Virus record (IMG/VR): IMGVR_UViG_2778261693_000004 | Coordinates: 1-16,397 of that record | DNA from: a virus | Taxonomy: Duplodnaviria; Heunggongvirae; Uroviricota; Caudoviricetes | Strand: one strand, 5' to 3' | Length of the DNA stretch: 16,397 nucleotides | Shown here: positions 1 through 16,397 of the stretch, piece after piece | How the letters are laid out: every line of letters starts with the position of its first letter | Numbering within the stretch: position 1 is the first letter of the stretch | Translations under genes and position numbers: made by a program | The notes under the pieces: model-generated | What the model was told of the DNA's origin: nothing | What the model saw: the letters and a program-made list of their open reading frames with translations, nothing else | Databases searched by the model: none

Positions 1-1
1 G

Positions 2-1703: not shown

Positions 1704-1708
1704 ATGGC

Positions 1709-1736: not shown

Positions 1737-1803
1737 AATGATGTCAAGGAGTGAAGTAATGGCAACGTCTTCGTAGTTGACAAAAACTGCGGCTCAATTA
1801 TAG

Positions 1804-1820: not shown

Positions 1821-1926
1821 GATAGATATTTTGTTTATCGCTAATCACATTTTTTCACTTCAGTACCTGTGTGCTATACTCCTTCTTGATTGATTGGATG
1901 CGGAATACAAACCCGCTCTTTTGTGC

Positions 1927-1954
1927 AGCCTGGCTCCTTGCCAGGCTTTTTTTT
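1927..1954 (+). terminator. Plus-strand rho-independent terminator with no annotated plus-strand gene upstream
   Basis: AGCCTGGC-tcctt-GCCAGGCT hairpin followed by T8 (1947-1954). Candidate extended -10 (TGcTATACT, about 1873-1881) lies 50 nt upstream on the same strand. Confidence 0.45.
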
Positions 1955-2264
1955 ATTTCATCATGGAAGTTGTTAACGCTTTGGACCTTGCTGAACTGAT
2001 TGAGAGGGCTTTGTCAACGTGCCCCAAAAATTCGCCAAACTCAGACATCACTTTAGCAAAACCGCGCCGTGCTTCTTCCTCGGTGGCATTCATCACGAAA
2101 TGTTCAGCACCACGCATACTTTTGACAGGGAACGCAACGGATATTGAATCAATATCAGGCATTCTATCGCTCAGCTTTACAGTGACAATGACGGCTGGCG
2201 ACTGAATATTAGTGCTTACAGACAGCACTACATATTTTCCGTCGATGTTGAAATCCTTTCTCAT
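1953..2264 (-). CDS. cra: Cra (cre-associated) small protein
   Basis: 103-aa ORF with GGTGA Shine-Dalgarno 3 nt before the ATG. Its offset from cre/loxP matches where I recall P1 cra. The equal-length mirror ORF on the plus strand has no Shine-Dalgarno. Confidence 0.5.
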   Translation of the reverse strand: MRKDFNIDGKYVVLSVSTNIQSPAVIVTVKLSDRMPDIDSISVAFPVKSMRGAEHFVMNATEEEARRGFAKVMSEFGEFLGHVDKALSISSARSKALTTSMMK

Positions 2265-2280
2265 ATGTCACCATAAATAT

Positions 2281-2297
2281 CAAAGAATTAGAGCAAT
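2281..2297 (-). promoter_or_regulatory. C1 operator-like site between cre and cra
   Basis: caaagaATTAGAGCAAT, 13/17 to the reverse-complement consensus. Confidence 0.4.
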
Positions 2298-2314
2298 CAT
2301 TTACGCGTTAATGG

Positions 2315-3346
2315 CTAATCGCCATCTTCCAGAAGGCGCACCATTGCCCCTGTTTCACTATCCAGGTTACGGATATAGTTCATGACAATATTTACGTTGG
2401 TCCAGCCACCAGCTTGCATGATCTCCGGTATTGAAACTCCGGCACGGGCCATATCTCGCGCGGCTCCGACACGGGCACTGTGTCCAGACCAGGCCAGGTA
2501 CCTCTGGCCAGAGTCATCCTTAGCCCCGTAAATCAATCGGTGAGTTGCTTCAAAAATCCCTTCCAGGGCGCGAGTTGATAGCTGGCTGGTGGGTGATGGC
2601 GAGGCAACACCATTTTTTCTGACCCGGCAAAACAAGTAGTTATTCGGATCATCAGCCACACCAGAGACAGAAATCCATCGTTCGACCAGTTTAGTTACCC
2701 CCAGGCTAAGTGCCTTCTCTACACCCGCGGTACTAACCAGAGTTTTCGTTCTGCCAATATGGATTAGCATTCTCCCACCGTCTGTACGTGAGATATCTTT
2801 AACCCTGATCCTGGCAATTTCGGCTATACGTAACAGGGTGTTATAAGCGATCCCCAGAAATGCCAGATTACGTATATCCTGGCAGCGATCGCTATTTTCC
2901 ATGAGTGAACGAACCTGGTCGAAATCAGTGCGTTCGAACGCCAATGCCTGTTTTGCACGTTCACCGGCATCAACGTTTTCTTTTCGAATCCGCCGCATGA
3001 CCAGTGAAACAGCATTGCTGTCACTTGGTCGTGGCAGCCCGGACCGACGATGAAGCATGTTTAGCTGGCCCAAATGTTGCTGGATAGTTTTTACTGCCAG
3101 ACCGCGCGCCTGAAGATATAGAAGATAATCGCGAACATCTTCAGGTTCTGCGGGAAACCACTTCCGGTTATTCAACTTGCACCATGCCGCCCACGACCGG
3201 CAAACGGACAGAAGCATTTTCCAGGTATGCTCAGAAAACGCCTGGCGATCCCTGAACATGTCCATCAGGTTCTTGCGAACCTCATCACTCGTTGCATCGA
3301 CCGGTAATGCAGGCAAATTTTGGTGTACGGTCAGTAAATTGGACAT
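2315..3346 (-). CDS. cre: Cre site-specific tyrosine recombinase
   Basis: 343-aa translation (MSNLLTVHQNLPALPVDATSDEVRKNLMDMFRDRQAFSEHTWK…MVRLLEDGD) is recognisable along its full length as P1 Cre. loxP lies about 420 bp upstream. Confidence 0.97.
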   Translation of the reverse strand: MSNLLTVHQNLPALPVDATSDEVRKNLMDMFRDRQAFSEHTWKMLLSVCRSWAAWCKLNNRKWFPAEPEDVRDYLLYLQARGLAVKTIQQHLGQLNMLHRRSGLPRPSDSNAVSLVMRRIRKENVDAGERAKQALAFERTDFDQVRSLMENSDRCQDIRNLAFLGIAYNTLLRIAEIARIRVKDISRTDGGRMLIHIGRTKTLVSTAGVEKALSLGVTKLVERWISVSGVADDPNNYLFCRVRKNGVASPSPTSQLSTRALEGIFEATHRLIYGAKDDSGQRYLAWSGHSARVGAARDMARAGVSIPEIMQAGGWTNVNIVMNYIRNLDSETGAMVRLLEDGD

Positions 3347-3353
3347 TTAACAC

Positions 3354-3575
3354 TCAGACAATAGTTTTAAGTAAAGTGTACAGGATTGGCTCTGCCTTTA
3401 CCTGTTTATGGTTCTCGTCATAGAAACGCCAGCGACCGCGCGTGCGTTCTATTTTCTCTTCACCGCGCGATAATGACAGTTGGCAACTATCACGATCAAA
3501 CCCTTTTGCCCGCCAGTAACCACGGTTTTTCTCAAGCTCAAGATGAGTGGACACTTTAGCAGCTGAATATCCCAT
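3354..3575 (-). CDS. Small ORF (73 aa) immediately upstream of cre and translationally coupled to it
   Basis: ATG at 3573-3575 preceded by GAGGTG 4-5 nt upstream. Stop lies 7 nt before the cre ATG. Basic protein (MGYSAAKVSTHLELEKNRGYWRAKGFDRD…). Confidence 0.35.
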   Translation of the reverse strand: MGYSAAKVSTHLELEKNRGYWRAKGFDRDSCQLSLSRGEEKIERTRGRWRFYDENHKQVKAEPILYTLLKTIV

Positions 3576-3671
3576 TTTTCACCTCTGATTGATTGGTGGT
3601 GCTAAGTGCGCTACGCGAAATCTGGAGCACTAACACTGCCAACATTTCGCAGATTTTACGTAGCGCAACCT

Positions 3672-3693
3672 TGATCAAATGATCAAGTGATCA
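3672..3693. promoter_or_regulatory. Cluster of three TGATCA (Dam GATC) sites in the cre upstream region
   Basis: TGATCA at 3672-3677, 3680-3685 and 3688-3693, with a fourth at 3741-3746. Consistent with the reported Dam-sensitive cre promoter region. Confidence 0.5.
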
Positions 3694-3764
3694 CTATTTG
3701 ACCTGATAAGGTATTGAACTGTATGGATTTACAGGTAAATTGATCATGTTCAATAACCCTTAAG

Positions 3765-3798
3765 ATAACTTCGTATAATGTATGCTATACGAAGTTAT
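3765..3798 (+). other. loxP: loxP recombination site
   Basis: Exact ATAACTTCGTATA-ATGTATGC-TATACGAAGTTAT. Confidence 0.98.
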
Positions 3799-3841
3799 CA
3801 GGTCCGAAGAGGAGTTTACGTCCAGCTGCGCACAAAAATCA

Positions 3842-3858
3842 AGAATTATTAGAGCAAT
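3842..3858 (-). promoter_or_regulatory. C1 operator (Op99-like) upstream of coi
   Basis: agaattATTAGAGCAAT, 15/17 to the reverse-complement consensus. Confidence 0.7.
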
Positions 3859-3924
3859 AAATTTTGAGAGAAAAATCCCACTCCACCAGCTAAAAACTGG
3901 ATTGTTTTTCATAGTTGTTTGACA

Positions 3925-3941
3925 ATTGCTCTAATAAATTA
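3925..3941 (+). promoter_or_regulatory. C1 operator (Op99-like) upstream of coi, opposite orientation to the previous site
   Basis: ATTGCTCTAATAAATTa, 16/17 to consensus. Confidence 0.75.
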
Positions 3942-4179
3942 TAGTTTTGCCGCCGTTACGTAATACGACTTTGGATTCACTATTTAATGTGTCTTCAGCG
4001 TTGTAGAGCGGCTCAGAAGGAAATGAGCAAACAGGGAAACCTTATACAACGGCATTACAGCTATGCATTGCTCATCTTACACACAGCGCAATGTTGTTAG
4101 ATTACCCCAGCATGGATCATGGGTGAAACAGTAGGTCAGAGCTTCAGGCTCTGTGTTGTCAATACAGTGAGGCATAATT

Positions 4180-4389
4180 ATGGCTTTCATTCAACCAACC
4201 ATCGACGACGTTAGACATTGCTCTAACGCTTTATCTGTAGACCCTGCCGAAACCGACGCTGCCCGCACCATTGCTGAACACTACTCAAAGATATCCAATC
4301 AGGACTACCGCATCACCCAAGACGACCTGGATGACCTCACTGACACAATCGAATATCTCATGGCAACTAACCAGTTAGCCTCACAATAA
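4180..4389 (+). CDS. coi: Coi, C1 inactivator
   Basis: 69 aa, the length I recall for P1 Coi. Sits directly upstream of c1 with flanking C1 operators. GAGG Shine-Dalgarno. Confidence 0.75.
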   Translation: MAFIQPTIDDVRHCSNALSVDPAETDAARTIAEHYSKISNQDYRITQDDLDDLTDTIEYLMATNQLASQ

Positions 4390-4405
4390 ATGCACTAATA
4401 AATCT
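4389..4405 (+). promoter_or_regulatory. C1 operator-like site between coi and c1
   Basis: aATGCaCTAATAAATcT, 14/17 to consensus. Confidence 0.5.
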
Positions 4406-4499
4406 ATTATTTTTGTTTGATCCCTCTATAATATAGGTCAGTAATGACCGGTTTTCTCAGCCGGGCGTTATTGACCATGTCAATTCTGGAGGAGGATCA

Positions 4500-5351
4500 A
4501 TGATAAATTATGTCTACGGCGAACAACTGTACCAGGAGTTCGTCAGCTTCAGGGATCTCTTTCTAAAAAAAGCTGTTGCACGCGCCCAACACGTTGATGC
4601 CGCCAGCGACGGTCGTCCTGTTCGCCCGGTTGTCGTTCTGCCGTTCAAAGAAACGGACAGCATTCAGGCTGAAATTGATAAATGGACTTTAATGGCGCGG
4701 GAACTGGAACAGTACCCAGACCTCAATATCCCAAAGACTATTTTATATCCAGTGCCTAACATCCTTCGCGGTGTACGTAAGGTTACAACTTATCAGACAG
4801 AAGCTGTGAACAGCGTCAACATGACCGCTGGCCGCATTATTCATCTGATTGATAAGGATATTCGCATCCAAAAAAGCGCGGGGTTCAATGAGCACAGTGC
4901 GAAATACATAGAGAACCTGGAAGCAACAAAAGAGCTAATGAAGCAGTACCCGGAGGATGAAAAATTCCGTATGCGCGTACACGGCTTTAGCGAAACAATG
5001 CTGCGCGTCCACTACATTTCCAGTAGCCCTAACTACAATGATGGTAAATCAGTTAGTTACCATGTGCCACTGTGTGGCGTGTTTATCTGCGATGAAACCC
5101 TCCGTGATGGAATCATCATCAACGGTGAATTCGAGAAAGCAAAATTTAGCCTTTATGACTCCATAGAACCGATCATCTGCGACCGCTGGCCGCAGGCAAA
5201 AATATATCGCCTGGCAGATATTGAAAATGTAAAAAAACAAATTGCCATCACTCGCGAAGAGAAAAAGGTCAAATCAGCCGCATCAGTTACGCGCAGTCGT
5301 AAAACTAAGAAGGGGCAGCCAGTAAACGACAACCCCGAAAGCGCGCAATAA
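4500..5351 (+). CDS. c1: C1 prophage repressor
   Basis: 283 aa, the length I recall for P1 C1. GGAGGAGG Shine-Dalgarno. Follows coi, about 0.7 kb from loxP. Window carries nine copies of its operator motif. Confidence 0.85.
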   Translation: MINYVYGEQLYQEFVSFRDLFLKKAVARAQHVDAASDGRPVRPVVVLPFKETDSIQAEIDKWTLMARELEQYPDLNIPKTILYPVPNILRGVRKVTTYQTEAVNSVNMTAGRIIHLIDKDIRIQKSAGFNEHSAKYIENLEATKELMKQYPEDEKFRMRVHGFSETMLRVHYISSSPNYNDGKSVSYHVPLCGVFICDETLRDGIIINGEFEKAKFSLYDSIEPIICDRWPQAKIYRLADIENVKKQIAITREEKKVKSAASVTRSRKTKKGQPVNDNPESAQ

Positions 5352-5354
5352 ATT

Positions 5355-5376
5355 ATGCCCGGCATCAACCGGGCAT
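5355..5376. terminator. Hairpin between convergent c1 and antirepressor genes, possible bidirectional terminator
   Basis: ATGCCCGG-catcaa-CCGGGCAT, 8-bp stem, with A/T-rich flanks. Confidence 0.4.
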
Positions 5377-5383
5377 TCTTCCA

Positions 5384-6529
5384 TTATTCAGCCGCCACCG
5401 GTTTTAACAAGCCAGCATCGAGCAGTTTACGCGTCAACCACTGTTGTCCTTTCCCCGTTAATTGGGGCGTCAGCCGTATCTGGTAGCCATCTTCATCATC
5501 CAGCACCACTTCTTTCACTGTGAAATATCCGGCGTTTATGTACTGCTGGAACGGCACATTTTTACGCCCGCCGGACGCTATCAGAATGCCGTTCTCCCGT
5601 AACCAGGCAAACAGCGCGTTTTGCTTCAGCCCAACAACCTTTGCAAAATTACCAATCAGGATCCCCTTAGCCACTGATACACGGTCGGCAAAATCGACCT
5701 TGGGGGCTGCGGCCACCAGTTGTTGATTTAGCTGGTGGGCCTTCTGTTCCAGTAGCTGCTTTTGTTCAGCCAGCTCGGCAGCCAGGCGCAAGGCTTCAGG
5801 TAGTGTTTGGGGGATTGCGACCGGTTGCTGTTCTTTTTGCCGGAAGTAGCTGTCTTCCAGTTTTTCAAAGAATGCCCATGCTTCATCTGTGTTTACGATC
5901 TTAGACATGCGTGCCGCTCCGCGTTCGGCCCAAAGAATTACCTGGCTTGTATATTTGCTAACCAGGTGACTAGTAGTCACCAGCCTTTTAAATTCCTTTA
6001 ATTTTTAACCAGTTAAGAGATAGTAATGCTTACCTTCTTCAAAGCGATCGGAGTTGCGAGACAAATTTTTACGAATATTAGCTTCATCGGTTCCATACCC
6101 CTTAGCAAGAGTTTCGGTCGTTACTACACGCACTCCCAGCCATTCCAGAACGGGAATTTCATCAGACTGATTCTGAACAACCACCAGCTCTGATTCCTGA
6201 ACTGAAGTTGCATGAATTTTTTCTGATTTAACGTTAGTTGCTTTCATTCTGTGTGCCTCCTTGCGTGCTTCGGCTGCGACGGTTGCGTAATTCAGATGAC
6301 CCTGTTCGAGCAGGTATTCACGGATATCGGTCACAGCGATAGCCTTTAAGCGCAGATAAACATCGCGCTTATCGACATCCAGATGCGGGTATTCCTTTTC
6401 AAGAATTGCTGCGAGTTCTTTCGCTGATAGAAGAGATTTAGTGCGGATCATGTAATCCGCAATCTCGTACGATGTTATTCGTGAGTGATTTATTTCCATG
6501 AAGTGGCGTCCCTGCCAGTTAAGTAACAT
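5384..6529 (-). pseudogene. Antirepressor-like gene (ORF6N/Rha-type N-terminal domain plus KilA-C/ANT C-terminal domain) split by an in-frame TAA at 6005-6007
   Basis: ORFs 6005-6529 and 5384-5980 are in the same frame. The upstream ORF stops mid-domain (…SDRFEEGKHYYLLTG*) and the domain continues after the stop (KLKEFKRLVTTSHLV…TDEAWAFFEKLEDSYF). The downstream part carries a KilA-C-like motif (GNFAKVVGLKQNALFAWLRENGIL…PFQQYINAGYF) and begins only at a GTG. Confidence 0.6.
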
Positions 6530-6599
6530 CCTGTCACCTACTGATTAGCCCATGTCAACTAATCAACGTCGAATATAATACCATCGATTAAAGAAATAG

Positions 6600-6616
6600 C
6601 AATACATTAGAGCAAT
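6600..6616 (-). promoter_or_regulatory. C1 operator-like site upstream of the antirepressor-like gene
   Basis: caatacATTAGAGCAAT, 14/17 to the reverse-complement consensus, 71 bp upstream of the ATG at 6529. Confidence 0.55.
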
Positions 6617-6617
6617 T

Positions 6618-7664
6618 TTATCTAACGCTCGACGAATGACTTGTGATAGCGCCGACTCCAAGCGCGTAATCAAAGAACAATCGTTGATGCATCGCCAGCC
6701 TACCGTGCGTCTTCTCCCAATTATCGCGGTCACGCTCAATATCACGCTGGCATGACTGGCACAGAGGAATAGCATAAATGTCATGCGCGCATAATCGACT
6801 ATAACGAACGATATAAGGCGTAATGTGAGCGCCAGCTCCCGCCGCTCCACACCCACAGCATGGACGGGAAGCAACAAAGTCCATGTACTCAGGTAATTTT
6901 AGCGATTGCAGTTTTGGTATTTTGAAATGCGCCATACCTGGGTCGGAGTCAACATCCACAGGGCATACTTTTGCACGCATCGGCGCGGCGCGTTCTTCCA
7001 TCATCTGAACATATGCTGTAGCGCGATCGTCATACGGGCGAATATCCGCCTCTTTCAGTGGTCCGCTATCCTGCGGAGTAGCCTTCATCTTATTTATTAT
7101 TGATATGCGGCAGACTTCTTCCGGCATCAGGTGCATCATGTTGCGCATGAAAGCCCACCAGCACAGCTCCTGAATACTTAAATCATGGCTATTTGAAAGG
7201 CCCATTTCCTGACGGGCGACATCCAGTATCCAGTTAACGCGATTATTGTGCAGCGTTTCTTTCAGCTCATTAAAACCACGCATCCGGTAATGGTTATCGT
7301 GATGCCAGCACAACAACACCGCGCTATTGTCTCGTTCAGCGTGGACAATATGGTTGTCACACCAACTACGATCTGCGGCCTGGCATTGACCCTCTTTCCT
7401 ACGCAACCACGCCACCAGCGCGTCAATTCCACCAATACGGCGAAACAGTTCATCGCTGTTAAAAAACGGCTGCAACGCCTCATTTGTTGCCATGGTTTGC
7501 TCGGTAACAACGAGGCCGTCTTCCATGTGCTCGATTAACTCACGCGGCACCGGCTCCATAATAAATTTACGGCCAGCCTCCACCAGCTTTCTGACCTCCT
7601 GATCCACTTTGAACGTGGCGAGGCCAAGCTCTTTCTGTACAAAGGGAGTAATTACGGCTTTCAC
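6618..7664 (-). CDS. Hypothetical 348-aa protein with a C-terminal Cys/His cluster resembling the Ref HNH-like motif
   Basis: GTG start with AAGGTG Shine-Dalgarno 4 nt upstream. C-terminus …[42 protein letters not shown]. At the position I recall for P1 pdcB, but I do not recognise the sequence. Confidence 0.6.
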
Positions 7665-7691
7665 ATCACACCTTTAATCACTGATTGGGCT

Positions 7692-7871
7692 TTATCTGCT
7701 GCCCGACATTATCTGTTTAAGCACAACCATTTCCTGACGGCATAACACAGCAATAGCGGTCCTGGCACCAATTTGCTTACTAACCAGGTATTGCTTTATC
7801 TTGCGGCGACTCACGCCATCAAGAAGCATCTTTAACGCTTCACGGGACAATTTGTTGTATTTGCGTGCCAT
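7692..7871 (-). CDS. Small basic protein (59 aa) immediately downstream of doc
   Basis: ATG at 7869-7871, 4 nt after the doc stop (MARKYNKLSREALKMLLDGVSRRKIKQYL…). At the position I recall for P1 pdcA. Confidence 0.45.
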   Translation of the reverse strand: MARKYNKLSREALKMLLDGVSRRKIKQYLVSKQIGARTAIAVLCRQEMVVLKQIMSGSR

Positions 7872-7875
7872 TAAT

Positions 7876-8256
7876 CTACTCCGCAGAACCATACAATCTA
7901 CGTAACGTGGCGGCGACAGAAGATACAGATATCTCGCCAGTCGCAGCGCCTACAGTAAGGTCTGCCAGTTCAGGTGAATCAAATACCTGCACCCCATTAC
8001 GGCGTAGAAATAGCAGCGCACTGTTTAGCGCGGTACGCTTATTGGCATCATTGAATATATGCCCTCTCGCTGTAGCCACCAGGTAGGTGGCGGAGACTTC
8101 GAAAAGGTCGGTGATCTCTTCGTAGGCAACTCTGGCCTGAACTCTCCCGATAATGGCCTCTGCCCTACCCGGATCTGACATTCCCGGCAGGCCGCCGTAG
8201 CGGTTTATATTCGCATCATGAAGCGCAATAAGTTCTTCCGGTGATATATGCCTCAT
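7876..8256 (-). CDS. doc: Doc toxin (Fic-fold kinase) of the phd-doc addiction module
   Basis: 126 aa ([22 protein letters not shown]…[23 protein letters not shown]…), recognised as P1 Doc. Its start overlaps the phd stop. Confidence 0.95.
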
Positions 8257-8477
8257 TATCGGTTAACCAGTTCCTTGTTGGTGGAGTCCAGGGTGTCAAA
8301 CAGGGATGCAAATTCAGCATCCAGCGCCGCTTTTTTGTAGGCTTCGAAAGTAGCCTTGCTGACAATTACTGCTGGCTCACGGCCTCTGCGGGTGATTTCA
8401 ACCTCTTCCCCGGCTTCAACATTGTTGAGCACTTCAGAAAGGTTGCCGCGCGCGGTACGGAAGTTAATGGATTGCAT
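8256..8477 (-). CDS. phd: Phd antitoxin
   Basis: 73 aa from the ATG at 8475-8477 ([49 protein letters not shown]…), recognised as P1 Phd. GAGGTG Shine-Dalgarno. Confidence 0.93.
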
Positions 8478-8484
8478 AAACACC

Positions 8485-8510
8485 TCGTGTACTCGTTATG
8501 TGTACACAAT
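8485..8510. promoter_or_regulatory. Phd/Doc autoregulatory operator with palindromic GTGTACAC sites
   Basis: Perfect palindrome GTGTACAC at 8501-8508 and a one-mismatch copy at 8487-8494, between a -10-like TATAAT on the minus strand and the phd Shine-Dalgarno. Confidence 0.55.
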
Positions 8511-8549
8511 TATAAACTTCACAGGCATAAAGCACCAGCACTTTGCAGC

Positions 8550-8939
8550 TTAAATCACCGGACAATCATCAAATTCCCCACTTCGGGCATCATTAATGAC
8601 ATGAGTGATCACACCAAACACAGCATTACTCCCCGTGCATCCATCGTCATCCACTGGTAACGCCTCTTTCTTCCCGGTGCTTAAATCCTCCAGGTGCTGG
8701 CGCGGATACTTTCGGTATCTCTTTATGCGATATTCACCCTCCATAGCGCACACAAGCAGCGAACCATCAACTGGAGTAAGCGAAGAATCAACCACCAGCA
8801 AAGCACCCTGCAATATTCCCTCACGGTGATGGCTATCAGCTGCCCGCATGAAGTAGGTTGCTGATGGATGTCTAATTATCTGCTGATCAAGAGAAATTCG
8901 GCTTTCAACATAATCCGCCGCAGGAGAAGGGAAACCCAT
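8550..8939 (-). CDS. humD: HumD, UmuD'-like SOS mutagenesis protein
   Basis: 129 aa starting [30 protein letters not shown]…, which aligns with the processed form of E. coli UmuD ([30 protein letters not shown]…); C-terminal [12 protein letters not shown] matches FGVVIHVVKAMR. Confidence 0.9.
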   Translation of the reverse strand: [129 protein letters not shown]

Positions 8940-8958
8940 AGCGTTTTACCTCAAAAAT

Positions 8959-8974
8959 ACTGTTTATCTATACA
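8959..8974. promoter_or_regulatory. LexA box (CTGT-N8-ACAG) in the humD promoter
   Basis: taCTGTttatctatACAGca, about 20 bp upstream of the humD Shine-Dalgarno and ATG, overlapping a plausible TTGCAC/TAATGT promoter on the minus strand. Confidence 0.65.
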
Positions 8975-9113
8975 GCATACATTAAAGAAGCACCTTTGGT
9001 GCAAACGCGTTATGTACATCAACCACCGCTGATGATTTTTGTGCGCTTTGCTACTATTCATCACCGCGGGATCAGCGTAACCTCGTTGCCAATCAGTTAA
9101 TAAGGAATTAGCT

Positions 9114-9698
9114 ATGCCTAATCGCATTCCTCTCGATCCTGTATTGCCCAAAAATTTTGACTGCACTCCTAACGAGAAACGCTCTAAAGCTCAGCTGGAC
9201 GCCTAGTGGGACCATCCATATGGGGTTACACAACCTGACGGGAAAATTGTAGTTTATTGTCTGAATGGTGGGGCGTGGGACCGTCCATCCATGCTTTGTT
9301 TGGCAGATAACTATGATGAAGCCTGTGAACTTGCCGAAAGACAGCAGGCAAGCTGGGTAAAAACACGGTCTGAACCGACATTCATGTTTTCAAAAGAACC
9401 GCCATTTATACTGGCGAGGATGCCGCAGCGACCGGATCATCAACAAGAAATTGTTGCTGAATTTTCCTCAAGGGATGAGATGAATCTCTTCTCATTAAAG
9501 CAGGAAGAAAGGGATCGCGTCGAAGTGTCTCCAACTCTCGACCACAACCGGATGAACCTGGCCCAGCTCGCCTGGTACAGCAAAGAATTAGAGATGTCTA
9601 TTGCCCGGCTTGAAAACGAAAAAGCCGCTATCCAAGTCCAGCACGAAGTAGTTCTGAACCGGATTAGAGAAATGCAAAACGATAACAGGGGATTTTGA
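9114..9698 (+). CDS. Hypothetical protein; reading frame from a well-positioned ATG is interrupted by an in-frame TAG at 9204-9206 (uninterrupted ORF starts at 9291)
   Basis: AAGGAA Shine-Dalgarno 8 nt before the ATG at 9114. Frame is open for 30 codons, then TAG, then continuously to 9698. The ATGs at 9291 and 9314 have no Shine-Dalgarno. The stop abuts the next gene's ATG. Confidence 0.45.
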
Positions 9699-10055
9699 AT
9701 GGCTAAAATCGAGTACCATCGCGATCGCGGTAATTACCTGGAAATATACGATCATGAATCTCTTAACGATATCAACGATGCGTTATATGAATACTGTGAA
9801 AAAACGAGCATCACAGATGCACCTGATGCATTTGTCGAGCTGCCGGTATATCTCCGCGACATCTATGCAATACGAACACCGCCCGTATCGGTGATTCACA
9901 TTGGCTATGTCCGCCTGTCCATCGAAGAAGATGAAGATCGTTATATCGTGCGCCACTATACATTGGACAGAAAAGAACTTCCTAATGAATGGAACATGAG
10001 TAATTTCTACAACGGTGAATATGGCTTAAAATCCGCTAATAATTTACGGTCATAA
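9699..10055 (+). CDS. Hypothetical 118-aa protein, translationally coupled to the upstream gene
   Basis: ATG at 9699 directly follows TGA at 9696-9698. AGGGGA Shine-Dalgarno. Sequence not recognised. Confidence 0.55.
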   Translation: MAKIEYHRDRGNYLEIYDHESLNDINDALYEYCEKTSITDAPDAFVELPVYLRDIYAIRTPPVSVIHIGYVRLSIEEDEDRYIVRHYTLDRKELPNEWNMSNFYNGEYGLKSANNLRS

Positions 10056-10900
10056 TCTATACAGGCATGTATAACAACAACGAGCCTATTAGCTGTCAAC
10101 AACGTTATTTCCTCAAATAAGAAAAAGCAGAAAACAAATTGTTTAAGGTCACAAATTGTGGCCTTGATGGAGGAGGGAGGCTTATTGGCTATGGCTAAAA
10201 ATCAAATTAGACACTTCATGTTGCTGTAGCTCATCAAGATCCGAGGCCACAAAACCTTTTCCGAAAAACTTCACAAGTAACTCACTAGCCGCATCATTGT
10301 CACCTATTACACGAAAGTCATACGGCAACGTCGCAAGTTGACGATGTAATCCTGCTGAGAAAGTCGAATCTAACAGCGCCCAGAATTCCCACCGCAGGAT
10401 AATACTCGCCTCTTAATACTGTATATATGTTGTTACGATATGTTTTTCTGTCTCTAAAAAAAGATGTTTGAAGGGGATAAAAATATACAATTCCAACAAA
10501 CGTTATTTTTAACAATTTTTTTCTTTGCGTTGACTTTCCCGGACACCTTGTCTGACCTAAGGTGCGCGAAAGCCACTTTTTCCTTCCTGAGTTATCCACA
10601 AAGTTATGCACTTGCAAGAGGGCCATTTTCTACATATTGTGGTGGCTAACAGATGAAATGAATGTAGATTAATTGAAGATAAGGAGAAAATTTGAGATGC
10701 AATCATGACGTTAATAGATAGGGTCTGCATTACAGACCCCACCCGCATCAAGGAATTAGCCGTTCCCTGATGTTTTTCCGAAAACATGTGCCGTAAGCTC
10801 ACGTTAACGACTTTCATTCACCGAATCCAACTATATAGGGGTTGGGTTTCTACGTCAACGTGAGCAAGTGCACCTTTACATTTGACAAGGAACCACCTGA

Positions 10901-11038
10901 ATGAACGCTTTTTTTCAGTTCCTGAGTGCATTTTTAGATGCGCCTATTATTAGCCAGATTCTGGCTATTATCCTCATCATCGTTTTGATTTTGCTTTTAA
11001 GGTCAGTAAAAAATGGAATTATGCACTGGCTTACTTAA
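10901..11038 (+). CDS. Small hydrophobic peptide (45 aa), single predicted transmembrane helix
   Basis: MNAFFQFLSAFLDAPIISQILAIILIIVLILLLRSVKNGIMHWLT with AAGGAA 8 nt upstream. Sits in an otherwise ORF-poor AT-rich region. Confidence 0.3.
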   Translation: MNAFFQFLSAFLDAPIISQILAIILIIVLILLLRSVKNGIMHWLT

Positions 11039-11113
11039 TGTTTCAGTGAAACATTAAAATCTCCTTGATGTGGAAACAATCATTTTCTGTATGTGCTGGT
11101 GGGCACCTGTAGT

Positions 11114-11476
11114 TCAGCTTTCGTTGGCATTTAACTTCGTCTTTGCTTTCTCCACCAGCAACTTCCAGATGCCTATTTCATTAGCAGCCGCCTTGATGGC
11201 GGCATAAAAAGCATCTTGCTGATCGTAACGCTGGATCTGTTTTTTCAGTTTTGCCTCCACCAATTTAATTTCATTACGTGCTTTCTGAAGCCGCATCACC
11301 GCCCGGTTACGTCTGTTCTTGTATAGCGTGTTAATCTCTGACAATTGCTTTAATTTACCAGCCTGACTGCGGATTATCGCCTCCCTGGCTTCTGCCGTGC
11401 GTCTCATCTGATCTCTTAAGAGTTCACCGTTTTCGATAATTCTTTCAAGGTGTTTGATGTGATCTGCAACTCTCAT
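11114..11476 (-). CDS. Hypothetical 120-aa basic, probably coiled-coil protein; last gene of a five- or six-gene minus-strand operon
   Basis: Start overlaps the stop of the upstream 293-aa gene. Lys/Arg/Glu-rich heptad-like sequence. Confidence 0.6.
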   Translation of the reverse strand: MRVADHIKHLERIIENGELLRDQMRRTAEAREAIIRSQAGKLKQLSEINTLYKNRRNRAVMRLQKARNEIKLVEAKLKKQIQRYDQQDAFYAAIKAAANEIGIWKLLVEKAKTKLNANES

Positions 11477-12354
11477 ACTTCACCCTCGCTTGTATCACCA
11501 GCGTCCACCAACGACAATAAAGCCCTGGCCATCTTATGAACCAACAGTGCATCAATAATGCCAAGCGTATGCCCCGGCTTAATGTTTAATGCTGCCTCAA
11601 GATGACACCTTTCCAGACCGCTTTTCTCGGCTTGTTTATGATGATATGGCGTAATAACGTCGCCCAAAACACGGCTAATTCTTTCTCGTAATTGCTGGGT
11701 GCCAGCACACTTGATCGCTGTATCGTGGAGACGGTTAACCAGTTCGCGATAAACATGCGGCTTAATGCGGATACGTTCACCGGTGACGCCCTTTCCTGGC
11801 GTAGGCACCGAACTATCCGGAATATCCGGATAGTTGCCAGCCAGTCTACGCAAAACAGCCTTAATTGCATCAATACGGTCATCATCAACTTTTTCTACAA
11901 TATTGGAATTTAAATACTTCGAAGCCTTGCTATGCCAATCGCTGGTTTTAGGGTCTTGTCCATCCATCAAACGCCAAGCTTCAGCGATTAACTCATAGCC
12001 AGTAACAGTGGCTTCCTGCGCATCACCAATCAGTTGTGTGATCTCTCTTTCAAGCATGCTTAGAGCGTTAGGCATTGGTTTTTCTTCCGGTACTACTGGA
12101 ACGGGGGGAGCGGCGTAGACCTCAATAATTCCATTATCAATAGGCCATTCTCCATCCTTGAGGTAGTCACTTGTGCCGTCAACTTGCTGTTCTGCAATGT
12201 GGAATGCACCTATTGGTTTTGCTTCCAGTGATGCCAGAGCAATTCGTGCCAGTTCTTCCGCTTCTTCTGCTGGCAGTACAACGTTGCTACCAGGTCCGTA
12301 TGTTTCGCGCCACTGCTTGATTGTCAGTAGTCGCTCTTTGGTAATAGTGGTCAT
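11473..12354 (-). CDS. Hypothetical 293-aa protein
   Basis: Long ORF overlapping both neighbours by 4 nt (operon coupling). Sequence not recognised. Confidence 0.65.
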   Translation of the reverse strand: MTTITKERLLTIKQWRETYGPGSNVVLPAEEAEELARIALASLEAKPIGAFHIAEQQVDGTSDYLKDGEWPIDNGIIEVYAAPPVPVVPEEKPMPNALSMLEREITQLIGDAQEATVTGYELIAEAWRLMDGQDPKTSDWHSKASKYLNSNIVEKVDDDRIDAIKAVLRRLAGNYPDIPDSSVPTPGKGVTGERIRIKPHVYRELVNRLHDTAIKCAGTQQLRERISRVLGDVITPYHHKQAEKSGLERCHLEAALNIKPGHTLGIIDALLVHKMARALLSLVDAGDTSEGEV

Positions 12355-12866
12355 GCCGCGTTTCCTTCTTTCTTATTAACAATTACACCGTCATATATTT
12401 CATTAAGGTGCCCTCTCAACTCCATGCGCCTTAATGCAGATAACATGTAATCGCATTCAACCTGCTTATTTCCAGTAAATGGCTTATCGTCAGGATTACC
12501 CCAACAGCAATTACCCTTGGGCCACCCATGTACTTTCCGTACTCTTCCGTTAACAACGTGAAGTAATCCCCAGCCAGGTGGTAAATCCTCAATTGAAATA
12601 ATTCCCGGCTCACTAATAAAGAATCGCCAGTCGCCCATTCCAAGAGACGGATTTTTACGAAAACGCTTTTTTCTATCTGCCAACAAGTCAGCACGAGAAC
12701 ACTTCGCCTCTATCAGGCATGATGCTGAATTTCTGAATCCCATAGCATCTGGCTGTTCTCCGGTACTGGTTACAGCTATAAAGCGGTCATGAAAACAAAC
12801 CTTGAACCCGTTGCGCTTAAGGAACTTGTACGCAATCTGACAGAGTTCGCGGTGTGTTAACGCCAT
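12351..12866 (-). CDS. Putative PD-(D/E)xK-fold nuclease (MmcB-like)
   Basis: 171 aa with a D…E-x-K signature (…GEQPDAMGFRNSASCLIEAKCSRADLLAD…). ATG overlaps the stop of the upstream PP-loop ORF. Confidence 0.55.
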   Translation of the reverse strand: MALTHRELCQIAYKFLKRNGFKVCFHDRFIAVTSTGEQPDAMGFRNSASCLIEAKCSRADLLADRKKRFRKNPSLGMGDWRFFISEPGIISIEDLPPGWGLLHVVNGRVRKVHGWPKGNCCWGNPDDKPFTGNKQVECDYMLSALRRMELRGHLNEIYDGVIVNKKEGNAA

Positions 12867-12867
12867 A

Positions 12868-13234
12868 TCACTCTCCTTTGATGCGAATGCCAGCGTCAGA
12901 CATCATATGCAGATACTCAACTGCATCCTGAACCCATTGACCGCCAATCCCGTAATAGCGATGCGTAATGATGTCGATAGTTACTAACGGGTCTTGTTCG
13001 ATTAACTTCCGCAGAAACTCTTCCAGGTCACCAGTGCAGTGCTTGATGACAGGAGTTTTCCCAGGATGGCGAACAACAAGAAACTGATTTCCGACTTCAC
13101 GGACTTCGTTGCTTTCCAGTTCTGCTATCCATAAAAATGAAATGGACGCTAACGCCAGCTTTTCGCTGTGCTTCCATCAGATGAACGAGATAAGCCGATG
13201 TTCGTCCACCTGAAAAGCTGACGACTTGATGCAT
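12868..13234 (-). pseudogene. PP-loop (SGGxxS) ATP-pyrophosphatase-like gene, apparently frameshifted
   Basis: ATG at 13232-13234 gives MHQVVSFSGGRTSAYLVHLMEAQRKAGVSVHFIFMDSRTGKQRSP*. A second frame overlapping it by about 80 nt continues to 12868 (…NQFLVVRHPGKTPVIKHCTGDLEEFLRKLIEQDPLVTIDII…). The switch lies near a T5 run / GGAAAG around 13100-13135. Confidence 0.45.
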
Positions 13235-13243
13235 ACTCACGGT

Positions 13244-13822
13244 TTATTCCTGAATGCGCTTAAACTCGATTACCCATACCAACGGGTTAGATAGCCAGTT
13301 ATCCTGCCCGTAAATACTGCGCCAGATATCACCAAAACCAACGCGATAAACAGCTTCAGATGGCGTAATCTTGTACGTCGCCGGAGTTGCGCCTTCTGCT
13401 TTAGCATCTTCCTCGCTCATGTCATGCAGCCGTTCCACACGCACGTCGGTAATTTCCAAAAGAATGCGCGATGCCCAGCGCGGCATGTGAATTGATGGCG
13501 TCCACTTTTCTGATACTGGTTTATTACAAACCTCGACCGGAACCCGGTGCGTTTGTTCTGTCCAGGAGTTACGCACGCTTGCGCGATAAACCAGCGTTGC
13601 GACGTCCGTCGCTTTGCCATGTACCCGGTAGGTTTCGCGAACCCAAATACGATCGCCCGGTTGACCATATGGACAATGCTTGGCAAGCAACTCTGCGGCC
13701 ACTGCCCGTCCATAGAATTTTTCTTCAACAATCCTGCGAGTCTGTGTTTTATTCCCGCCAAGAATTGCCCGGACCATCTCATCGTTAAAAATCATGCCGC
13801 GCTCTTTCACTTCGCCTTTCAT
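13244..13822 (-). CDS. ASCH-domain-like protein
   Basis: 192 aa. N-terminal MIFNDEMVRAILGGNKTQTRR fits the ASCH G-x-K-x-x-T-x-R signature. GGGGG Shine-Dalgarno. Confidence 0.6.
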   Translation of the reverse strand: MKGEVKERGMIFNDEMVRAILGGNKTQTRRIVEEKFYGRAVAAELLAKHCPYGQPGDRIWVRETYRVHGKATDVATLVYRASVRNSWTEQTHRVPVEVCNKPVSEKWTPSIHMPRWASRILLEITDVRVERLHDMSEEDAKAEGATPATYKITPSEAVYRVGFGDIWRSIYGQDNWLSNPLVWVIEFKRIQE

Positions 13823-13831
13823 GCATCCCCC

Positions 13832-13918
13832 TTACCCATGTGCGACGATGCCGCCAAAAGTGATAGAGAACAGCCAGAAATAGATCGCGGCCATAATGAT
13901 TTTGAATGCCGTGTTCAT
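13832..13918 (-). CDS. Small hydrophobic peptide (28 aa), first ORF of the operon
   Basis: MNTAFKIIMAAIYFWLFSITFGGIVAHG with AGGAG 9 nt upstream. Its stop lies 9 nt before the ASCH gene's ATG. Confidence 0.3.
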   Translation of the reverse strand: MNTAFKIIMAAIYFWLFSITFGGIVAHG

Positions 13919-13945
13919 ATTTTCAGCTCCTGTGATTGATTGGAT

Positions 13946-13977
13946 ACATGCCGCGCCTTGCGGCATGTTTTTATTTT
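13946..13977 (+). terminator. Plus-strand rho-independent terminator in the leader of a minus-strand operon
   Basis: ACATGCCGC-gcctt-GCGGCATGT (9-bp GC-rich stem) followed by TTTTTATTTT. No plus-strand gene upstream. Confidence 0.45.
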
Positions 13978-13991
13978 CACTTTCTCTGTTT

Positions 13992-14008
13992 TAAAAATCA
14001 TTATTTAT
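13992..14008 (-). promoter_or_regulatory. C1 operator in front of the ASCH/PP-loop/nuclease operon
   Basis: ttATTTATTAGAGCAAT, 15/17 to the reverse-complement consensus. Confidence 0.7.
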
Positions 14009-14016
14009 TAGAGCAA

Positions 14017-14523
14017 TTATTGTTGATGGAGAAGCGCGTTTTCATACTCCCTGACCATTAACGTAAGCACGCCGTGCCTCCTGAAAACACGCGCCACTTC
14101 AATCTTATCTTCCAGCGCGAACGCAATTTTGCTTAGACCAATTTTCTTAAGGAGATCAATCTTTGCTGGACCGTCATTTCTGTCATCGGTGGCGGGACGC
14201 ATAGATAGCAAAGGCTCTGCCCCATTTGTTACGTGCTTACGCAACCAGGCTCGTGTTTTATCCCTGGCTATCTCACAGCGCCCGGTTACAAACCAGAGCG
14301 TGTAAATGCTGGACAACTGGCGCACCATATCAATAACTGGAGTGATGGAAGCATCAGTGTCACAGGCAAGGTTAAACTCGTTCCAGTGCTCTGTTAATGC
14401 ACCGTTGCCAGGCGGTGGAAGTAAATGCAGCCTGTCTTCCGTTGCCTCCGATATCGTTCCATCAATATCTACTATGACAATGTACGGACGTTCCTGGTGT
14501 GCGTGTTTATTGAAAATACTCAA
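14017..14523 (-). CDS. HAD-superfamily phosphatase (polynucleotide 3'-phosphatase-like DxDGT motif)
   Basis: 168 aa with motif I VIVDIDGTIS. TTG start with GAGGAGG Shine-Dalgarno 4 nt upstream. Confidence 0.7.
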   Translation of the reverse strand: MSIFNKHAHQERPYIVIVDIDGTISEATEDRLHLLPPPGNGALTEHWNEFNLACDTDASITPVIDMVRQLSSIYTLWFVTGRCEIARDKTRAWLRKHVTNGAEPLLSMRPATDDRNDGPAKIDLLKKIGLSKIAFALEDKIEVARVFRRHGVLTLMVREYENALLHQQ

Positions 14524-14542
14524 ATGCCCTCCTCATTGGACG

Positions 14543-14576
14543 AAAAAAATGCTGGTGGGCGCACTCCACCAGCATT
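14543..14576 (-). terminator. Minus-strand rho-independent terminator after the 420-aa gene
   Basis: AATGCTGGTGG-gcgcact-CCACCAGCATT (11-bp stem) with A7 on the plus strand 5' of it, i.e. a U-run after the hairpin on minus-strand RNA. Confidence 0.55.
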
Positions 14577-14595
14577 AAAAGTGACACTGTAACTA

Positions 14596-15858
14596 TCAGC
14601 GAACGTAAATAGTGCCGCCGTTCACTTTTTCCCATGCATCGCTAAGTGCATAGCAAACATCAAGAAGTCTTCTTGCCGCTGTTTCCTCTAAACCCAATTC
14701 GACAACCAACTGCTCATGACGGCGGGTAACCACATCAAACAGGGTATGCAGCCCTTTAGCTGCCAGATCATCAATAAATTCCGGTTCGAACGGCAGCTCT
14801 GCATCTGCCAACATAACCTCTTGCGCCCACTCAACTCGACGGACCAGTTCCGGGCGGCGGCTTTCCATCTCTTTACAGATCAATTCATGGAAGAACTCTA
14901 CCCAACCTTCCGGCTGGAACTCGCGGAAAATTGCCAACGGCTGGAAGTTTGGCATCAACCATTCGTTGATTCGGATATCAATGGCATAGCCCATGTCGCA
15001 GCAGAACTGATAAGCAAAGTCCAGCTTAGAAACGATATAAGGACGCTCGTTATTGAACTCTTTAGGCGATGAGATCCCATAAGCCAGGAGGCGCGGGAAG
15101 AATGAGATTTGCCCTAACGTCGGATGGAGTTTGCTTGCAGGAAAACGGCGCTCAGTAATGCCATACATTTCCTTCTTGAGCGTCGCAAATTTAGCATTTT
15201 CATTAACCAGCGCGGTAACCTCTGCTTTTTTATTAGCAAATGCCACGCGCGCTTCGCTTGCATCTTTAATAGTTTTTTTGAGCTGTTGGTTAAGATCGGC
15301 GACCTGCTTACGCAGTTCCTGTCGCTCGCTTTTAGCTTTGTTATAGCGTTTCTCAAGGTTAAAAGGATCAAGTTTCATGATCTCTTTATATTGAGATTTT
15401 AGCGTTGAAATCTGTGAGTTCCGCAGTTCAACCATCGCGGTCATTTCATTGAGTTTTGTTTCCAGCTCAATGCTTATACGTTCGGCATTATCAGCACGCT
15501 GGTTGGCGTCATGCGTCGCATCGTCGATCGCGTCCTGTTGCTGGCGTTTCAAATGTTCAATTTGCAGCTGAAGCTCTTCAATTTCTTTACCCTTCAGACC
15601 GAGATCCAACTGCATATTTTCAGCTGCATCTACCAGGGAGTTATGGCTATCAGCTTCTGCGTTATAAACATCAATAAGCTGTGCGTGAAGCATCTCCGCT
15701 GACTGAACCGCATTATCAAAAAAACGCGCTGTGAGGTCATCACAACTAACGCGGCGTTGCGCGGCCCGGATGTTCTGGATAATGGCCGGGATACCGGCAT
15801 TCAGGACGTCAGGGATAGATACATTTTCGATTGATTGGTTTTGTGCTGAAGTGCTCAT
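14596..15858 (-). CDS. Hypothetical 420-aa protein, N-terminal coiled-coil plus a C-terminal globular domain
   Basis: Long ORF; residues about 80-220 are heptad-rich (…EIEELQLQIEHLKRQQQDAIDD…). Sequence not recognised. Confidence 0.65.
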   Translation of the reverse strand: MSTSAQNQSIENVSIPDVLNAGIPAIIQNIRAAQRRVSCDDLTARFFDNAVQSAEMLHAQLIDVYNAEADSHNSLVDAAENMQLDLGLKGKEIEELQLQIEHLKRQQQDAIDDATHDANQRADNAERISIELETKLNEMTAMVELRNSQISTLKSQYKEIMKLDPFNLEKRYNKAKSERQELRKQVADLNQQLKKTIKDASEARVAFANKKAEVTALVNENAKFATLKKEMYGITERRFPASKLHPTLGQISFFPRLLAYGISSPKEFNNERPYIVSKLDFAYQFCCDMGYAIDIRINEWLMPNFQPLAIFREFQPEGWVEFFHELICKEMESRRPELVRRVEWAQEVMLADAELPFEPEFIDDLAAKGLHTLFDVVTRRHEQLVVELGLEETAARRLLDVCYALSDAWEKVNGGTIYVR

Positions 15859-15859
15859 T

Positions 15860-16078
15860 TCAAAGTTCCGTATTAGCTTGTGCTTCGGTCATTTTTCCTA
15901 AGTATGAAGGAGGAAGGACTACGCAATTTGTATCCAGTCCCTCACCTATGGCAGCCTGTAAAATTCTGGCTAAGGTGAGTCTCTTGTTGCGATACCTGGT
16001 GATGACATGCCTGATACCGCCGGTCGGCGTAACAAAGGCGATCAGCCAGTAGTGATATTTCCGTCGGAATGGCCACAT
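15860..16078 (-). CDS. Hypothetical 72-aa protein, first gene of the operon
   Basis: ATG with AAGGTG 5 nt upstream. Stop is 1 nt from the 420-aa gene's ATG. C1 operator pair immediately upstream. Confidence 0.5.
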   Translation of the reverse strand: MWPFRRKYHYWLIAFVTPTGGIRHVITRYRNKRLTLARILQAAIGEGLDTNCVVLPPSYLGKMTEAQANTEL

Positions 16079-16092
16079 AGTGCACCTTGTAG

Positions 16093-16109
16093 ATTGCTCT
16101 AATAAAAAA
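16093..16109 (+). promoter_or_regulatory. C1 operator, proximal site of an inverted pair
   Basis: ATTGCTCTAATAAAaaa, 14/17 to consensus. Confidence 0.6.
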
Positions 16110-16141
16110 CGTTATGAGTGTACATCACGTTTTAAAAATAT

Positions 16142-16158
16142 GGAATTATTAGAGCAAT
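16142..16158 (-). promoter_or_regulatory. C1 operator, distal site of the inverted pair
   Basis: ggaattATTAGAGCAAT, 14/17 to the reverse-complement consensus. Confidence 0.6.
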
Positions 16159-16270
16159 ATTATTCTGATTCTCGCTCAAAAAACGCGCTAATGAGAGGAA
16201 GCCAATCCTCTGACACTTCACGCGGTCGCGGTTTGCCATGGAAGAAGATTATTCGGCAGTCTTTTGGTAA

Positions 16271-16397
16271 TGATCTTACCCAGCAATAGTGGACACGCGG
16301 CTAAGTGAGTAAACTCTCAGTCAGAGGTGACTCACATGACAAAAACAGTATCAACCAGTAAAAAACCCCGTAAACAGCATTCGCCTGAATTTCGCAG
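16271..16397 (+). mobile_element. Left end of an IS3-family insertion sequence (IS3-like), running off the window
   Basis: Terminal TGATCTTACCCAGCAATAGTGGACACGCGG… followed by an orfA start, both of which I recognise as the IS3 left end. Confidence 0.75.
16336..16397 (+). CDS. IS3-family transposase OrfA, N-terminal fragment
   Basis: ATG at 16336 with GAGGTG Shine-Dalgarno; translation MTKTVSTSKKPRKQHSPEFR…. Confidence 0.75.
   Translation, partial: MTKTVSTSKKPRKQHSPEFR

Follow-up and report, generated by a model that had tools for sequence, protein, structure and literature searches.

Phages P1 and P7 carry a repressor-controlled block of three genes, pmgR, pmgS and pap (shtA, shtB and pap in P7), and this operon, with its operators, has stood in GenBank, in the records of P1 and P7, for some two decades. 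Along the direction of transcription, the P1 record gives the order OpmgRa, OpmgRb, pmgR, pmgS, pap and OpmgT (Op88), and its annotation text (AF234172) states that the operator Op86a 'controls expression of pmgR and pmgS', with pap unnamed. Deletion of pmgR in P1 is lethal and leaves heads and tails unjoined (PMC9024508); pmgS and pap are dispensable (PMC9024508, PMC10695390). Here, we have analyzed the corresponding block in a viral stretch of 16,397 nucleotides (IMG/VR record IMGVR_UViG_2778261693_000004, positions 1 to 16,397; hereafter, the window), in which a terminator-like hairpin lies between pmgS and pap. Internal attenuating terminators are found in bacterial operons, for example T1 between rpsU and dnaG in the rpsU-dnaG-rpoD operon of Escherichia coli, where a terminator between cistrons, together with weak translation signals, lowers the distal gene and no dedicated factor is involved. 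The arrangement in the window is similar, except that the distal gene of the P1-like block, pap, is dispensable and variable cargo, and that read-through into it is what we infer.

The 2.4-kb region could be aligned over its full length with 19 P1-like phage genomes (P1, P7, SJ46, RCS47, JL22 and others) at 96.9-97.9% identity. It is reversed relative to P1 AF234172, which it matches with 100% coverage and 97.4% identity and with gene coordinates that are equal after a fixed offset of +10899, and the entire window matches E. coli P1-like plasmids, some of them at 100%. Judged by this similarity, the window is a P1/P7-like plasmid prophage and the region is P1's annotated repressor-controlled pmgR-pmgS-pap block. 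Genes, gene order, operator positions and the 507-bp extent of pap are shared with P1 (AF234172) and P7 (AF503408), at 97.3-97.4% nucleotide identity. Unlike in these two phages, pmgQ is cut in the window by an IS3 element 113 nt upstream of Op86a; the genes beyond Op88 are P7-like, whereas P1 has pmgT-pmgU-pmgV there. The terminator and two further elements described below, an inverted pair of Chi sites and a 13-nt motif, are not among the annotated features of the compared P1 and P7 stretches. An initial annotation of the window, made from its letters alone, had already recognized the block: all the elements that it named are present at the coordinates it gave, and most of it is an accurate re-description of the known P1 operon. 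Its one new idea, that terminators placed directly before gene starts serve regulated read-through (antitermination), is unsupported, as discussed below. The elements around the hairpin are as follows:

15860-16078, minus strand: pmgR (P7 name shtA), 72 amino acids; open reading frame (ORF) and P1/P7 annotation
14596-15858, minus strand: pmgS (P7 name shtB), 420 amino acids; ORF and P1/P7 annotation
14543-14576, minus strand: intrinsic terminator; stem 14576-14548 with arms AATGCTGGTGG and CCACCAGCATT, loop AGTGCGC (7 nt), T run 14549-14543 (7 T)
14528-14534, minus strand: Shine-Dalgarno sequence GAGGAGG of pap, 4 nt ahead of the TTG
14017-14523, minus strand: pap, 168 amino acids, TTG start; ORF, with an extent of 507 bp in GenBank and in the Prokaryotic Genome Annotation Pipeline (PGAP)
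14001-14017, minus strand: C1 operator Op88 (OpmgT in P1, Op(hea) in P7); consensus match and P1/P7 annotation; overlaps the pap stop codon and opens the next repressor-controlled unit

The stem comprises 11 bp, six of them GC pairs, and the terminator is one-directional, its T tail being absent on the plus strand. A scan of the window for terminator-like sites, which returned 28 sites against 15.7 +/- 3.6 in shuffled sequences, placed it at rank 2, and the 66-nt terminator region folds at -20.3 kcal/mol (z = -2.66), in keeping with the strong terminator that had been reported at this position. Its pairing is also kept in relatives. In an alignment of six sequences, a small sample from four lineages in which the PmgS proteins of the relatives are ~70% identical, 11 pairs could be followed: all eight core pairs hold and the GC core is unbroken, one pair changes from G-C to A-U on both sides (three of the six sequences), and three pairs are kept via wobble changes. 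Among ~80 loci of the P1 clade, substitutions in the hairpin were located in the loop or yielded G-U pairs. With its GC-rich stem, U run and kept pairing, the hairpin has the defining properties of an intrinsic (Rho-independent) terminator, and the comparison indicates that it is a selected feature at the 3' end of the pmgR-pmgS unit. The pmgS stop codon lies 19 nt before the hairpin, too far away for a terminating ribosome, which should not mask it, and the distance from the last T to the TTG of pap is again 19 nt.

To see the hairpin in a wider context, relatives with PmgS at ~70%, 53% and 27% identity were gathered and the sequence 3' of pmgS was inspected in each. Scans of contig collections with the genome set and the first viral set returned near-identical P1-clade loci only, and one with the 27%-identity homologue as query returned nothing. 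The following arrangements were observed:

L005 (PmgS 71%) and L175: hairpin and T run, then pap with Shine-Dalgarno sequence and TTG
L096 (PmgS ~70%): hairpin and T run, no pap, Op88-like operator directly next
L092 and L095 (PmgS ~70%): neither pap nor a clean terminator
L176: pap with TTG, preceded only by a weak AT-rich stem without T run
L006 (PmgS 53%): hairpin without T tail, a gene of 101 amino acids, then pap with ATG coupled by TAATG
L091 (77% to the PmgS of L006): exonuclease-like gene directly after pmgS
L174 (close to L006, PmgS of 423 amino acids): DEDD exonuclease-like gene (Pfam Rv2179c-like), gene of 101 amino acids, pap
L008 (PmgS 27%): no pap; GC-rich hairpin and ATTTT immediately ahead of an unrelated gene of 74 amino acids

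The pair of a pmgR-like gene and pmgS was present in every locus examined. Since the hairpin is found in a locus that has no pap (L096), and pap in turn in one that has no clean terminator (L176) and behind other genes in L006 and L174, the hairpin belongs to the end of pmgR-pmgS and is not a switch for pap, which agrees with the P1 annotation that assigns only pmgR and pmgS to Op86a. Relatives without pap likewise have an Op88-like operator downstream of the pmgS region. On this comparative evidence, a variable slot between the pmgR-pmgS terminator and Op88 takes different cargos, of which pap is one, and the conserved terminator marks the unit boundary after pmgS, with the slot beyond it. 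Within the 53%-identity lineage, pap stands behind the 101-amino acid gene in L174 (1635-2989) and L006 (3860-4653), and an exonuclease-like ORF follows pmgS in L174 and L091 (from 3772). Rv2179c-like proteins are a family of 3'-5' exoribonucleases, which hints at a small nucleic-acid end-processing module in this lineage.

The gene behind the terminator is well conserved where it is present. The TTG at 14523 is the only canonical in-frame start between the upstream TGA and the DxDxT motif of the protein, and it is the start codon of pap in 81 of 81 P1-clade loci; the 507-bp pap of GenBank and PGAP implies the same start. Shine-Dalgarno sequence and TTG are kept in L005, L175, L176 and nearly all P1-clade loci. 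Copies of pap are intact in 76 of the 81 loci, and their codon differences (1149 synonymous versus 699 nonsynonymous) indicate that the gene is under purifying selection. Pap matched Pfam PF25109 with 43.8 bits (cutoff 27.6; 3.5e-11), so that the HAD phosphatase with a GAGGAGG Shine-Dalgarno sequence and a TTG start, as proposed initially, stands. The class B acid phosphatase family PF03767, from which the name Pap originates, reached only 13.2 bits, under its cutoff of 27, and no signal-peptide-like sequence could be seen by inspection of the N-terminus (MSIFNKHAHQERPY). A profile of 10 Pap sequences found structures in PDB at 3e-6 to 2e-5 (Pnkp1 at 3.2e-6 and T4 Pnkp at 3.6e-6), and Foldseek matches of the AlphaFold2 model, which is of moderate quality (mean predicted local distance difference test score of 64, residues 22-58 of low confidence), were led by 5uj0_A (2.5e-6), followed by 4xrp_A (1.2e-5) and 1ltq (3.2e-5). 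Like the 3'-phosphatase domain of T4 polynucleotide kinase/phosphatase (1ltq, 5uj0) and Pnkp1 (4xrp), Pap has the HAD fold and the DxDxT motif (D19, D21, T23). Residues invariant across 10 homologues (D19-x-D21-x-T23, T80/R82, K121 and E138-D139) align with the T4 Pnkp motifs: R82 corresponds to the R of T4 VVSGR, D113/R115/D117/K121 to T4 GDTRKDDVVK and E138-D139 to T4 DD. Unlike T4 Pnkp, Pap is the phosphatase domain alone (~23% identity): a P-loop kinase domain was not found in its 168 amino acids, and all matches cover the phosphatase domain only. Sequence and model together identify Pap as a HAD phosphatase of the T4 Pnkp type that stands alone and has intact catalytic motifs; its probable activity is the removal of 3'-phosphates from nucleotides or from the ends of nucleic acids. 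Several records carry the label '3'-phosphatase, 5'-polynucleotide kinase', which is overstated because Pap has no kinase domain, and the protein would be better named a stand-alone Pnkp-type 3'-phosphatase than an 'acid phosphatase' or 'kinase'.

We also examined how pap is expressed relative to its neighbors, using published RNA sequencing (RNA-seq) data for P1vir. The values are per-gene log fold changes relative to time 0, without gene-length normalization; in wild type, they change between 10 and 30 min from 7.05 to 11.66 for pmgQ, from 9.02 to 10.81 for pmgR, from 9.99 to 11.70 for pmgS, from 8.45 to 11.23 for pap and from 9.72 to 11.66 for pmgT (PMC8201110 Table S1). By these values, pap is an early gene like its C1-controlled neighbors and unlike pmgL-pmgQ, with a step down past pmgS and a step up past Op88. 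Such kinetics are far from the on/off behavior of a dedicated antiterminator. A promoter scan of the pmgS-pap spacer called none. A late promoter feeding pap was also considered and rejected: for the Lpa-dependent late promoters, whose architecture was derived from P1 sites (AAGTNACTT box, ~4 nt, -10 hexamer), the spacer contains no box with at most one mismatch, and the best local candidate, TAGTTACAG, has three mismatches and a poor -10.

Considering these data, we assign a probability of roughly 0.6 to the reading that the region is the known P1 block, in which the hairpin is an ordinary leaky end-of-operon terminator, read-through into pap is passive, and pap encodes an accessory Pnkp-type phosphatase. 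In a lysogen, C1 would keep the promoter PpmgR shut. Upon induction or infection, PpmgR would fire early and most transcripts would stop at the hairpin, giving a pmgR-pmgS message, while a minority of polymerases would cross it and carry pap, so that Pap would be made early and at a lower level. This level would be set passively by the leakiness of the terminator and the weak TTG start codon, in the absence of a dedicated antiterminator, pap being an accessory gene in the variable cargo slot before Op88.

Several points weigh against this reading. The 2.5-2.9-fold step from pmgS to pap at 10 min may partly or wholly reflect gene length (1263 nt for pmgS, 507 nt for pap). The pap:pmgS ratio, which is independent of length, rises from 10 to 30 min by 2.1-fold in wild type and by 2.8-fold in dksA; passive leak alone does not predict this late rise, which these data attribute to no particular mechanism. 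It is possible that the leaky read-through of pap is supplemented late in infection, and a modest regulated component would be compatible with the values. Moreover, a stem of 11 bp with seven U behind it looks like an efficient terminator, and substantial leakage is therefore an assumption. Finally, two further genes of the window, ref and the one at the mat position, lie directly behind terminator-like hairpins as well.

The last point touches the proposal of regulated read-through. Its premise, that terminators right before gene starts recur in the window, is correct for three minus-strand cases (ref, the mat-position gene and pap). Under regulated antitermination, a phage or host factor would let polymerases from C1-controlled promoters cross these hairpins, thereby timing or gating expression of the genes behind them; we consider this very unlikely. 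The three hairpins stand 5-19 nt ahead of start codons and downstream of C1-controlled or late promoters, the pap:pmgS ratio increases with time as described, and ref is reported to reach its peak slightly after other C1-controlled genes (PMC4713147). The early protein PmgS offers a further lead, but a lead only, through its (HhH)2 domain, a type shared by the alpha C-terminal domain of RNA polymerase and the acidic repeat of NusA; (HhH)2 domains are common and mostly non-specific DNA binders. However, the ref, mat-position and pap leaders share no cis element and no k-mer of 6 or more besides T runs (Chi occurs in two of the hairpins), Rfam gave no match in the window at the gathering threshold, nor at E up to 5 in 14450-14700, and a search of the available text library found no paper joining 'bacteriophage P1', 'antitermination' and 'C1 repressor'. 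Both pap and ref are strongly induced already at 10 min, the terminator is kept without pap and pap without the terminator, and, as noted above, the spacer has no late-promoter box. The N/nut and Q/qut systems of phage lambda likewise have terminators between an early promoter and downstream genes, but the window shows no shared leader motif, no element resembling nut, qut or put and no homologue of N or Q, and the genes behind its terminators are early. It seems even more doubtful that the pre-start terminators form a common device of the P1 family whose read-through is raised during lytic growth by some factor, with PmgS as one candidate, and we regard this extension as highly improbable. 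If it were true that these terminators are jointly regulated, the early genes of P1 would be under a further, unrecognized layer of control, which none of the present results shows. The importance for biology at large is small, and the practical gains lie in annotation.

Other explanations leave the terminator efficient or give the palindrome a different role. pap could have its own weak promoter that starts inside the hairpin, which would make it independent of C1 at Op86. A sub-threshold candidate exists, with TTCGCT (14603-14598), an 18-nt spacer and TTTAAT (14579-14574) agreeing at 8 of 12 positions and a start at ~14567 in the 5' arm, and P1ref, a predicted second promoter in the P1 annotation, provides a precedent, its -10 (CATCAT) lying directly before the ref leader hairpin and its start within the stem. 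We nevertheless hold such a promoter to be unlikely: the candidate was not called by the scan, its -35 is not conserved in L005, its -10 region varies (TTTAAT, ACTAAT, ATCAAT), with the retained A residues explained by their pairing with the U tract, and the kinetics of pap follow early pmgR/pmgS and are not constitutive. At the other extreme, pap might be decaying cargo that an efficient terminator keeps effectively silent, its reads being pervasive background. The gene is indeed non-essential, absent from several related lineages and present as a frameshifted remnant in plasmid pMRE162, but its intact state in nearly all P1-clade loci, the invariant TTG, the kept Shine-Dalgarno sequence and catalytic residues, the excess of synonymous over nonsynonymous differences and a 10-min log fold change above that of the upstream pmgL-pmgQ genes make this hard to believe. 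The palindrome itself might be kept mainly as a two-way Chi site for RecBCD, with terminator activity incidental. Both arms of the stem are exact Chi octamers, P1 is strongly enriched in Chi, and a near-copy of the palindrome occurs in P1 gene 25, where a terminator role is impossible. On the other hand, relatives keep hairpin and T run with non-Chi arms (GCTGATGGG / CCCATCRGC), so that pairing is the older constraint; by our estimate (30 and 18 sites in 88 kb), ~0.5 inverted pairs within 40 nt are expected by chance, and the two found are thus no clear excess. A mainly Chi-driven palindrome is therefore improbable in our view, and the Chi and terminator roles are in any case not mutually exclusive. 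The leaky end-of-operon terminator thus remains the reading that we prefer.

The Chi pair and the 13-nt motif that accompany the terminator are located as follows:

14551-14573: inverted Chi octamers (GCTGGTGG) in both arms of the terminator stem, at 14566-14573 (minus strand) and 14551-14558 (plus strand); exact octamer matches
14581-14593, minus strand: 13-nt near-palindrome GTTACAGTGTCAC, 2 nt past the pmgS stop codon

The window contains 16 Chi sites versus 0.34 expected. We counted 48 in 88 kb of the P1 genome, and a published count gives 50 in 94.8 kb, with Chi ahead of all other octamers in frequency (PMC12315714). Of inverted Chi pairs, the P1 genome has only two; one is the terminator palindrome and the other is the near-copy (AATGCTGGTGGACTGCGCCACCAGC) inside gene 25 (OP279344 74002-74023). 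The compensated stem position of the hairpin alignment is exactly the base on which the Chi identity of both arms depends, and the arms kept in the ~70%-identity lineages are one base off Chi on each side. A single copy of GTTACAGTGTCAC is present in the window, and likewise in the P1 genome. In the lineages with ~70% PmgS identity, it is identical at 11-13 of 13 positions regardless of the downstream content, whereas its flanks and synonymous sites vary, and the version in L095 is a perfect palindrome. An anti-terminator pairing of this motif with the ribosome-binding region of pap was considered and rejected, as RNAfold folds the window sequence in this way but gives no such pairing for L005, and the motif is also kept where pap is missing.

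Upstream, the unit begins with the following elements:

16142-16158, minus strand: C1 operator Op86a (OpmgRa), ATTGCTCTAATAATTCC; 3 mismatches; P1 annotation; overlaps the predicted -35 of PpmgR
16129-16157, minus strand: predicted sigma-70 promoter PpmgR, transferred from the P1 annotation; -35 TTGCTC at 16157-16152, 17-nt spacer, -10 TAAAAC at 16134-16129
16093-16109, plus strand: C1 operator Op86b (OpmgRb), inverted; 3 mismatches; P1 annotation; between the promoter and the pmgR start

Operators were scored by mismatches to the asymmetric 17-bp consensus ATTGCTCTAATAAATTT, and eight matches were found in the window versus 0.10 expected from shuffles. The inverted pair that had been pointed out before pmgR coincides with OpmgRa and OpmgRb of P1. 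PpmgR is weak, with 7 of 12 consensus positions, and falls under the threshold of the promoter scan. In all examined relatives except L008, down to 53% PmgS identity, the operator pair is found at about -300 and -250 from the pmgS ATG. The region can thus be described, from its motifs, as a C1-controlled unit with an operator pair around a weak predicted sigma-70 promoter.

A single base separates pmgR from pmgS (TGA A ATG), and this tight arrangement, noticed initially as well, indicates that the two genes are translationally coupled. PmgR matched phrog_3177 (4e-47), a PHROG of unknown function, as its sole match, and a gene of 72-75 amino acids lies upstream of every pmgS homologue examined. 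PGAP leaves pmgR unannotated in the P1-like plasmids L177 and L178 (NZ_CP119403, NZ_CP061751), although the gene is essential in P1. PmgS is predicted to consist of an antiparallel coiled-coil hairpin, an alpha/beta domain and a C-terminal (HhH)2 domain. The coiled coil attributed to the 420-amino acid protein was recovered as a helical hairpin in its AlphaFold2 model (residues 41-160 and 166-232). PmgS alone gave no informative family match (Pfam, PHROG, NCBIfam and defense-system models); defense-system and NCBIfam models, run against all three proteins, returned generic coiled-coil matches for PmgS only. Nothing significant was found for PmgS in a viral structure library, and no fold match was singled out for the alpha/beta domain. 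D288 and D294 were rejected as family-wide invariants, since they are invariant in close relatives but not in the wider family alignment. An exhaustive search extended the PmgS family to 119 clusters at 50% identity. A 36-member profile matched (HhH)2 domains (RAD51 N-terminal domain 1.4e-7, RNA polymerase alpha C-terminal domain 1.9e-7, NusA ~5e-5), and one-third of its members (12 of 36) match Pfam HHH_5 or RNA_pol_A_CTD. The domain lies at residues ~350-410 of PmgS, an early and non-essential protein, and points to nucleic-acid binding. For the database labels 'PmgS-like head morphogenesis' and 'sheath contraction', there is no support in the evidence gathered.

Other leaders in the window were also inspected. 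In the ref leader (1703-1820, minus strand), which extends from the C1-controlled promoter/operator (1804-1820) to the ref ATG (1703), there is a strong hairpin, GGCGGCC-ATTA-GGCCGCC, with ten T after it. This hairpin (1736-1719) stops 5 nt short of the ATG, a Shine-Dalgarno sequence is not obvious, and the paper on Ref mentions no terminator (PMC4713147). At the mat position (954-1110, minus strand), a hairpin at 993-975 with a T run contains a Chi site and ends ~11 nt before the ATG at 954; it lies downstream of the Omat operator and a late-promoter box (AAGTGACTT, 1094-1102), and the gene behind it encodes a hypothetical protein of 150 amino acids and is not P1 mat. Past Op88 (13832-13968, minus strand), there is a leader hairpin (13946-13968) whose stem sequence varies by lineage and always pairs, then the conserved CAATCAATCA and a small hydrophobic ORF of 28 amino acids from the ATG at 13918, MNTAFKIIMAAIYFWLFSITFGGIVAHG. 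This ORF is unannotated in the compared P1/P7 stretches; PGAP calls a 44-amino acid version.

Between c1 and pdcB (5384-6529, minus strand), the window has only two ORFs where P1 has pacB, pacA and lpa. One is a fusion in which the 70 N-terminal residues of an Lpa-like activator precede an Ant/KilAC-like antirepressor; the Ant-like protein continues in the other. With the terminase genes missing, the element is probably packaging-defective, and it may be without a working late activator. Plasmid pMRE162 matches the window at 100%, but ~1.6 kb of the present region is deleted there, pap being the remnant mentioned above. At the other end of the block (16160-16397), the left end of the IS3 element is at ~16272, its transposase is on the plus strand and pmgQ is reduced to its last ~36 codons; the exact IS3/pmgQ junction was found in 4 of 5426 complete E. 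coli genomes.

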